Below, piece by piece: positions 5,318 through 6,538 of a DNA stretch of 6,538 nucleotides; within the stretch, counting starts at the first letter, position 1, and each line of letters opens with the position of its first letter. The DNA comes from a virus (taxonomy: Duplodnaviria > Heunggongvirae > Uroviricota > Caudoviricetes): the IMG/VR virus record IMGVR_UViG_2529293223_000007; one strand, 5' to 3'. Below the pieces are notes generated by a model. It was not told the DNA's origin. It searched no databases and saw nothing but the letters and a program-made list of their open reading frames with translations. The translations under genes and the position numbers were made by a program.

Positions 5318-6538
5318 TCAGCTGATACTGATACCTGCTGTGGATTTTTTCATCACCACAACCAGCAGATCGCTGATACTGGTTGCTGGTGTCCAGTTAT
5401 TCGCTCCTGATGAAGATACGGTGAATGTCAGTGTCAGCGTCCCCTGTCCGGCAGGCATATCTATAACTGAGGAAAATACGCCCTGAGCATCCGTCGTGGA
5501 CTGATTAAAAATCTCCTGACCATTGCGGGTCACTCTTAACCGGCAGGTTGAATACCAGTATGACTGTTGGTTATTACTGTTGAAATTCTCATGCTTACCA
5601 CCGCGGAATAACACTGGAGGTATCATGACCTGCCGGTCAAACTTCTGATCATCACTGATTCTTACCGTGATGGTGCCGCTGGCATAACTGTTCGTGCGGG
5701 GGAAAGACTTGCTGACCGTTTTGACAATATCGCCTTCAATCTGGTTGGCTGACAGTTTCCCCTTAATCTGACAGTTCTCATTAATCGTGACGTTGTTGAG
5801 CGTCCCGGCGTTCGCATTCACACTGCCACTGATATCCGCATTTTTAGCGGTCAGCTTTCCGTCTGATGTCAGGGAAAATACCGGAGGACTGCCACCACTG
5901 GTAATGGTGGGGGCCGTCAGGCGCTTCAGGAACACGTCGTTCATGAATATCTGATTGCCCTGCGCCACAAACATCGGCGTTTCATTCCCGTTTGCCGGGT
6001 CAATAAATGCGATACGGTTAGCGGCAACCAGAAACTGACTCAGTTTGCCTTCCTCCGTGTCCTCCATGCTGAGGCCAATACCCGCGACATAATGTTTGCC
6101 GTCTTTGGTCTGCTCAATTTTGACAGCCCACATGGCATTCCACTTATCGTTGGCGTCCTTCCACTCTTTCGAAAACTCCTCCAGTCTGCTGGCGTTATCC
6201 TCCGTCAGCTCGACTTTTTCCAGCAGCTCCTTGCCGAGATGGGATTCGGTTATCTTGCCTTTGAAAAAATCCAGGTAACCTTCCACATCATCGCTCGCCC
6301 GACCGACGGCCTCCACGAATGCCGATTTGCCAACGGTGTTCACACTGCGGATATAAAAGTAATAATCATGGCCCGGTTTGATATTGATACTGGCGGCTAT
6401 CCAGTACAGCGCCGTACCAAGATAGCGGGCTGTGGTTTCAACCTGCCTGATATCGGTAATCCGCTTTTCCGAGAACCAGAACTCAAACTGTACCGTCGGG
6501 TCATAAACGGCAAGATGCGGCGTGGCGGTTATCTGAAA
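5318..6538 (-). CDS. J: Host specificity protein J (central tail fiber / tip attachment protein), C-terminal portion; 5' end lies beyond the window
   Basis: The reading frame is open from the window edge (6538) to TGA at 5318-5320. Hand translation upstream of the track ORF gives [84 protein letters not shown]..., continuous with the track ORF; the track's 'M' at 6341-6343 is an internal GTG. The segment ...[77 protein letters not shown]... matches lambda gpJ as I recall it. Confidence 0.93.

Follow-up and report, generated by a model that had tools for sequence, protein, structure and literature searches.

A probable OmpC-type receptor-binding cassette on a 434-type shaft in the tail protein J of a lambdoid prophage

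We analysed a stretch of phage DNA of 6,538 nucleotides (hereafter the window) that contains the 3' third of the tail gene J. The last 162 codons of J very probably form an exchangeable receptor-binding domain (RBD) cassette of the A8/2H10/phi330 type, carried on a shaft of the phage 434 type, and the porin that it recognises would be OmpC, not LamB. This conclusion about the receptor holds because near-identical RBDs have been tested experimentally, not because the RBD differs from that of lambda.

The J fragment lies on the minus strand at 5318..6538 and comprises the C-terminal 406 codons of the gene and its stop codon, as identified by translation, BLASTP and Pfam. The open reading frame crosses the right edge of the window (6538), and the N-terminal ~726 codons lie beyond it. 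BLASTP against the lambda genome (NC_001416) gave a single alignment, in which the fragment is colinear with lambda J residues 727-1131 and 75% identical overall. Three Pfam families match the fragment, all far above their cut-offs, in the order Ig_J_second (PF24489, residues 1-92), Phage_Tail_Tip (PF09327, residues 119-246) and Ig_GpJ_C (PF12421, residues 282-406). The order of domains is thus FNIII-2, alpha-helical shaft and central straight fibre, and Ig-like RBD, which is that of the lambda-type central tail fibre or tip attachment protein J. Alignment to the J proteins of 434 and lambda places the shaft, meaning FNIII-2, the alpha-helical shaft and the central straight fibre, at 5810..6538 (minus strand). 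The Ig-like RBD of the A8/2H10/phi330 type consists of 162 amino acids, ends in AGISIS and occupies 5321..5806 (minus strand) according to PDB, Pfam and alignment evidence. Two short open reading frames on the plus strand beneath the RBD (5340-5486 and 5523-5648) were rejected as candidate genes, being antisense to a strongly conserved coding region.

One segment of the shaft is of separate interest. The lambda J 902-933 peptide (32 residues, including F924) is identical in the fragment, at 5918-6013 on the minus strand. This peptide has been reported as the trigger of the Gifsy-1 abortive-infection nuclease HepS (PMC13043305), and because of its identity a phage released from this prophage would be expected to activate HepS.

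To locate the change in similarity to lambda, we split the fragment at the motif GTLNNVTI into its first 244 residues (shaft) and its last 162 (RBD). The shaft is identical to lambda J at 234 of 244 residues (95.9%), whereas the RBD is identical in only 74 of 167 alignment columns (44.3%) and has gained or lost 4, 5 and 1 residues in three loops. A fall from ~96% to ~44% inside one open reading frame is a domain-scale switch, not noise. The RBD still matches Ig_GpJ_C (PF12421) with E=1.2e-36; in terms of sequence, the J C-terminus is a diverged homologue of lambda's within the same domain family, and an unrelated domain is ruled out. The sequence-only reading had described a J protein that stays close to lambda and then diverges for the last ~150 residues, and these figures bear it out, as does the translation of 5318-6538 (minus strand) for the C-terminal peptides that it quoted. 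It placed the start of divergence correctly in the residues that it cited (up to ...ISGSVNAN), but its coordinate, 5770, is about 10 codons too far downstream. The nucleotide alignment with lambda ends at about 5760. High identity to lambda J 971-1132 including loops L1-L4, which would have spoken against a change of receptor, was not found (44.3%). However, the step from divergence alone to a new receptor did not survive: phage 21 uses LamB with an RBD that shares only 48% identity with that of lambda.

Relatives of the RBD fall into discrete identity classes. A tblastn search with its 162 residues against 50,697 phage records returned 245 records. The RBD is carried at 97.5% protein identity or above by 44 phage records (97.5-99.4%), among them many long-tailed Stx1a and Stx2a phages, 2H10, PhiR70_1, YYZ-2008, CP-1639 and phi330. 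Phage 21 and several Lambda_ev phages form a class at about 81%, followed by Stx2 phage 1717 at 78%, WGPS2 at 62%, the 434 host-range type at 46-48% and lambda, which reaches 44.6% in tblastn. Pairwise comparison of the RBDs gave 99.4% for 2H10, 98.1% for phi330 (159/162), 81.5% for phage 21, 47.6% for 434 and 44.3% for lambda. The core of the variable cassette (window 5390-5760) is also common in E. coli, with about 1,500 records at no less than 95% nucleotide identity from 5,426 complete E. coli genomes.

The best match in a PDB sequence search was the chain "A8 gpJ 713" (9WCA/9WCB), which scored 890 bits (lambda J, 669 bits) and is identical to the window RBD at 161 of 162 residues. A second PDB search, with OmpC as query, led back to 9WCB, in which three further chains bear the name "Outer membrane porin C", so that a structure of this RBD type has been deposited together with OmpC. 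We regard the PDB "A8 gpJ" as the chimera of that name published by Brödel et al. (Nature 2024), an assignment that rests on the name, the architecture of lambda plus a foreign C-terminus, and the co-deposit with OmpC.

In that study, the C-termini of gpJ proteins from natural E. coli prophages were fused to lambda gpJ (PMC11338833). The gpJ chimeras were screened on a lamB-deleted recipient, and the OmpC-binding lambda Stf was swapped for a P2 chimera (PMC11338833). With the A8 gpJ, 95% of MG1655 ΔompC ΔlamB cells carrying OmpC(MG1655) on a plasmid were transduced, compared to 1.9% with wild-type lambda (PMC11338833). The A8 and 1A2 chimeras differ in the OmpC alleles that they accept, and A8 takes most of those tested (PMC11338833).

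Independent evidence comes from phi330. When 54 Keio outer-membrane mutants were tested with this phage, lysis was lost only on ΔompC, and plaques on ΔompC were restored by Plac-ompC (PMC12502783). The OmpC dependence was established at the level of the whole phage, and the contacts between J and OmpC are AlphaFold3 predictions only, which place the phi330 hairpins E953-S962 and A1015-P1020 on OmpC (PMC12502783). The phi330 RBD differs from that of the window at three residues: TSTY is found where the window has TNSY (two residues), and T replaces A at position 141.

The phi330 deposit (PV189401) has a peculiarity of its own. Its J is split into 2948-3424 and 3361-6489 and its stf into 7214-7543 and 7543-8532, though the phage is viable, and both frameshifts are probably sequencing errors. 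Because of the apparent frameshift in J, the annotated protein (1042 amino acids) and the residue numbering of the paper are offset from full-length J. We considered whether the split stf could prove that the OmpC dependence of phi330 comes from J, and rejected this argument since the essential N-terminus of J is also frameshifted in the same record.

By its near-identity to these experimentally tested domains, the window RBD would be classed as the OmpC-binding A8/phi330 type. The same comparisons argue against the LamB-binding lambda type (44.3%, with indels in three loops) and also against the OmpC-binding 434 type, for which the RBD identity is 47.6% with other loop lengths, despite 99.2% identity in the shaft. 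The best alignments to J proteins of known receptor are with A8 gpJ (161/162) and phi330 (159/162), both OmpC, and the proposal that the phage adsorbs through a receptor other than LamB gains support and a named porin from PDB 9WCA/9WCB, the A8 chimera and phi330. We found no receptor data in the literature for 2H10, the long-tailed Stx1a/Stx2a phages, YYZ-2008, CP-1639 or PhiR70_1, and a bioRxiv 2026 paper on receptor prediction contains no data on lambda-type RBDs.

Four putative distal loops can be placed on the window RBD, an assignment drawn from the alternation of strands and loops and from the descriptions of phi330 and lambda. The first is the short loop TNSY (5684..5695, minus strand; T918-Y921 in phi330), found by alignment. 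It is 4 residues shorter than the corresponding loop of lambda and 6 shorter than that of 434. In phi330 it reads TSTY, with mismatches at 5691 and 5688, and it is located outside the predicted OmpC contacts of that phage. The second, at 5561..5590 (minus strand), aligns with the phi330 hairpin E953-S962, for which AlphaFold3 predicts insertion into the OmpC barrel. This loop exceeds that of lambda by 5 residues, and its sequence is shared without change by the window, phi330, 2H10 and phage 21. The third putative distal loop, NQSTTDAQG (5480..5506, minus strand), comes from alignment, and its distal placement from strand/loop alternation. The fourth, at 5381..5410 (minus strand), carries the hairpin ANNWTP (A1015-P1020 in phi330), a predicted contact with the OmpC rim according to the phi330 AlphaFold3 model and alignment. 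Both predicted contact hairpins are identical in the window and phi330.

The sole feature of the RBD cassette that is private to the window is a T-to-A change (T141A, codon 5384-5386, mismatch at 5386) directly after the ANNWTP hairpin. Every other sequence that we compared carries T here, A8, phi330, 2H10 and phage 21 among them. It is doubtful that T141A arose in an arms race and adjusts the RBD to a particular OmpC allele or widens its use of porins. The broader alternative, that T141A or the 434-type shaft confers a dual or shifted specificity (OmpC together with OmpF or LamB, or only certain OmpC alleles), is likewise improbable. The position of T141A next to a predicted contact hairpin speaks for it, as do the differing allele ranges of the A8 and 1A2 chimeras and the behaviour of phage 21, in which the substitution I1025T at the junction of fibre and RBD adds the use of OmpC, and a few further changes add OmpF. 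However, T141A is one conservative change in 162 residues, the window keeps the isoleucine (GDIV) at the junction position equivalent to phage 21 I1025, and A8 already takes most of the OmpC alleles tested.

Phage 21 also bears on a second alternative, in which the RBD still binds LamB and its divergence from lambda reflects drift among LamB binders. The native receptor of phage 21 is LamB, its RBD is as distant from that of lambda as the window's is, it is 81.5% identical to the window RBD, and the 5561..5590 and ANNWTP hairpins are common to both. However, relatives at 98-99% identity depend on OmpC and are independent of LamB, since A8 is functional in ΔlamB cells and phi330 forms no plaques on ΔompC. 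Moreover, 30 residues separate the window RBD from that of phage 21, and 10 of these are in three of the putative distal loops: TN versus NG in loop 1, NQSTTDAQG versus QQPATDVSR (6 of 9 residues) in loop 3, and S133Y and A141T in loop 4. The two RBDs agree in loop 2 and in the hairpin of loop 4, and disagree in loop 1, in loop 3 and at the beginning of loop 4. We consider continued LamB binding very unlikely. Because phage 21 uses LamB despite 81.5% identity and identical hairpins, a small number of changes can alter receptor choice in this clade, which sits close to the boundary between LamB and OmpC. Its members are known to be switched between LamB, OmpC and OmpF by a single substitution or by a few.

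The OmpC-type cassette is joined to the rest of J in a mosaic, which we mapped by nucleotide identity in 60-nt bins together with lists of mismatches. The shaft is 98.8% identical in nucleotide sequence to the lambda h434 hybrid (OM418627) over 779 nt, with no mismatch between window 6000 and 5810, and its protein is identical at 242 of 244 residues (99.2%). This 434-J-like shaft indicates that the prophage either shares a very recent ancestor with a 434-like phage or has exchanged DNA with one. The upstream crossover interval can be narrowed to 5805..5845 (minus strand), in which the window cannot be told apart from either the 434-type shaft or the phi330/2H10-type cassette, except at the private base 5809. 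Mismatches to phi330 are dense down to 5846 and then sparse, and those to h434 begin at 5809-5792. Between ~5805 and about 5320, each 60-nt bin matches phi330 and 2H10 at 95-100% identity, and the alignments to lambda and 434 break off at about 5760, within the cassette (about 5320-5800). Identity of 92-100% per bin to all OmpC-type and 434-type phages returns at about 5340 and continues through lom; in the lom flank the values are 93-100% for h434, 2H10, 1717 and WGPS2, and 92-100% for phi330.

The cassette moves independently of the shaft, as follows from the near-identical RBD that phi330 carries on a shaft of 55% identity. According to published phylogenies, J residues 960-1132 have a history separate from that of the remaining protein, with frequent recombination between the two, and indels near residues 1012 and 1107 mark lineages (PMC6646904). 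The indels of the window RBD fall at these published sites. We propose that the cassette was joined to the 434-type shaft by homologous recombination in sequence conserved on both sides. On the 5' side, the exchange would have taken place in the end of the straight-fibre domain, and on the 3' side in the last ~18 codons of J, the J-lom spacer and lom.

The mode of action that we envisage follows the lambda RBD mechanism, which has been described with loops L1-L4 (PMC11101478; lambda structures PDB 8XCJ/8XCK). The trimeric central tail fibre would end distally in three copies of the Ig-like RBD, as in lambda, and their distal loops would be pushed into the extracellular mouth of the trimeric porin OmpC. 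Binding of OmpC may then spread the bases of the RBDs, which would twist the straight fibre, flip the helical shaft and finally open the tail tip for the ejection of DNA. The relay after binding is presumably the same as that of lambda. We also infer that the J protein of this prophage is complete, is expressed and behaves in the same way despite T141A.

The remainder of the window has the organisation expected of a lambdoid tail operon, with J, lom, stf and tfa in this order. The gene lom encodes an Ail/Lom outer-membrane protein (4652-5251, minus strand; PF06316, E=3e-121), and it is followed by the side tail fibre gene stf (1579-4593, minus strand, 1004 codons) and the tail fibre assembly gene tfa (1005-1579, minus strand). 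A serine invertase gene of the Pin/Hin type is encoded on the opposite strand (317-907, plus strand). Of 5,426 complete E. coli genomes, 832 contain similar DNA that spans 80% or more of the window, annotated there as gpJ, Ail/Lom, stf, tfaQ and pinQ. No tRNAs were found in the window.

Between J and lom, 18 nt past the stop codon of J, there is a hairpin with a T-run that resembles an intrinsic terminator (5281..5300, minus strand). The annotation of phage 21 has a terminator at this point after J. A second hairpin of this kind, also with a T-run, follows lom at 4604-4625 (minus strand), and lom is thereby bracketed as a separate unit between J and stf. The C-terminal ~230 residues of stf (window 1582-2270, minus strand) share 71% identity with the corresponding end of lambda Stf, which was reported to bind OmpC and was removed by the authors of the Nature 2024 study for that reason (PMC11338833). 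From this similarity, both adhesins of the prophage, J and stf, might target the same porin.

The invertase gene adjoins tfa, with a gap of 908-1004, and there is no second copy of tfa or of the stf tip in between. A search of the whole window for a gix/hix-like crossover core AAACCNNGGTTT with up to one mismatch gave no match, and it appears that the invertible segment is missing or has degenerated. The sole Rfam match in the window is IS009 (RF02111) at 1039-1237 (minus strand), with 220.9 bits against a gathering score of 117. It is located wholly inside the tfa coding sequence, and this 'RNA family' coincides with a conserved phage gene segment.

Compared to lambda tfa and the intact copy in E. 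coli strain S10, tfa has lost 1 nt between 1453 and 1452 (AGTACCGAT -> AGTA-CGAT). The deletion results in two overlapping open reading frames (1235-1579 and 1005-1418) and reflects either a pseudogene or a sequencing error. With J cut by the edge of the window and tfa frameshifted, the prophage may be defective. A reading in which J is a truncated or unassembled relic of a decaying prophage and uses no receptor is nevertheless extremely unlikely: the tfa deletion, the IS insertions near J in many matching loci of other genomes and the location of the J N-terminus outside the window would fit it, but the fragment is free of premature stop codons and frameshifts and matches genes of plaque-forming phages (2H10, phi330, PhiR70_1) at 99-100% identity, the related S10 prophage has the complete tail gene set G-T-H-M-L-K-I-J-lom-stf-tfa, and such decay would concern activity and not what the RBD recognises.

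The RBD variant, its receptor, its modular exchange, its use in engineering and its structure with OmpC are all already published or in the PDB. What is gained for the window is annotation only, in that its J allele can be labelled OmpC-type instead of LamB-type. The label matters since the porin recognised by a lambdoid tail tip sets which strains are lysogenised, and the choice of porin also affects the spread of Shiga-toxin phages with the same cassette. It further explains the use of this variant in retargeting lambda-based DNA delivery to gut E. coli, where LamB is down-regulated.

Several known systems can be set beside the window J. Lambda J has the same order of domains, an RBD of the same Ig-like fold family (PF12421) and presumably the same trimer-opening trigger; however, lambda binds LamB. 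Phage 434 also targets OmpC, although recognition in 434 and in the lineage of the window is achieved by non-homologous loop sequences. Phage 21 J (OL657228) belongs to the same RBD lineage, with no indels relative to the window and the two main hairpins identical, but its shaft is 65% identical to that of the window and has an alpha-helical part that is 28 residues longer. Phage 2H10 (NC_049950) is 97.4% identical in nucleotide sequence across J, lom and the start of stf, and differs at about 10 positions where its shaft is lambda-like and that of the window 434-like. The A8 gpJ has an RBD of the same length with the same loops and also a lambda-like shaft. In contrast to the window J, it is an engineered fusion to the shaft of lambda, whereas the window shaft is of the 434 type and 10 amino acids away from lambda in 244; the two proteins further differ by T (A8) versus A at RBD position 141 and by NANS (A8) versus NANA just upstream of the RBD. 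The J of vB_EcoS_phi330, an Stx2a-converting phage, is followed by lom and stf as in the window, but its shaft is only about 55% identical and is of the long alpha-helical variant that is also present in WGPS2.
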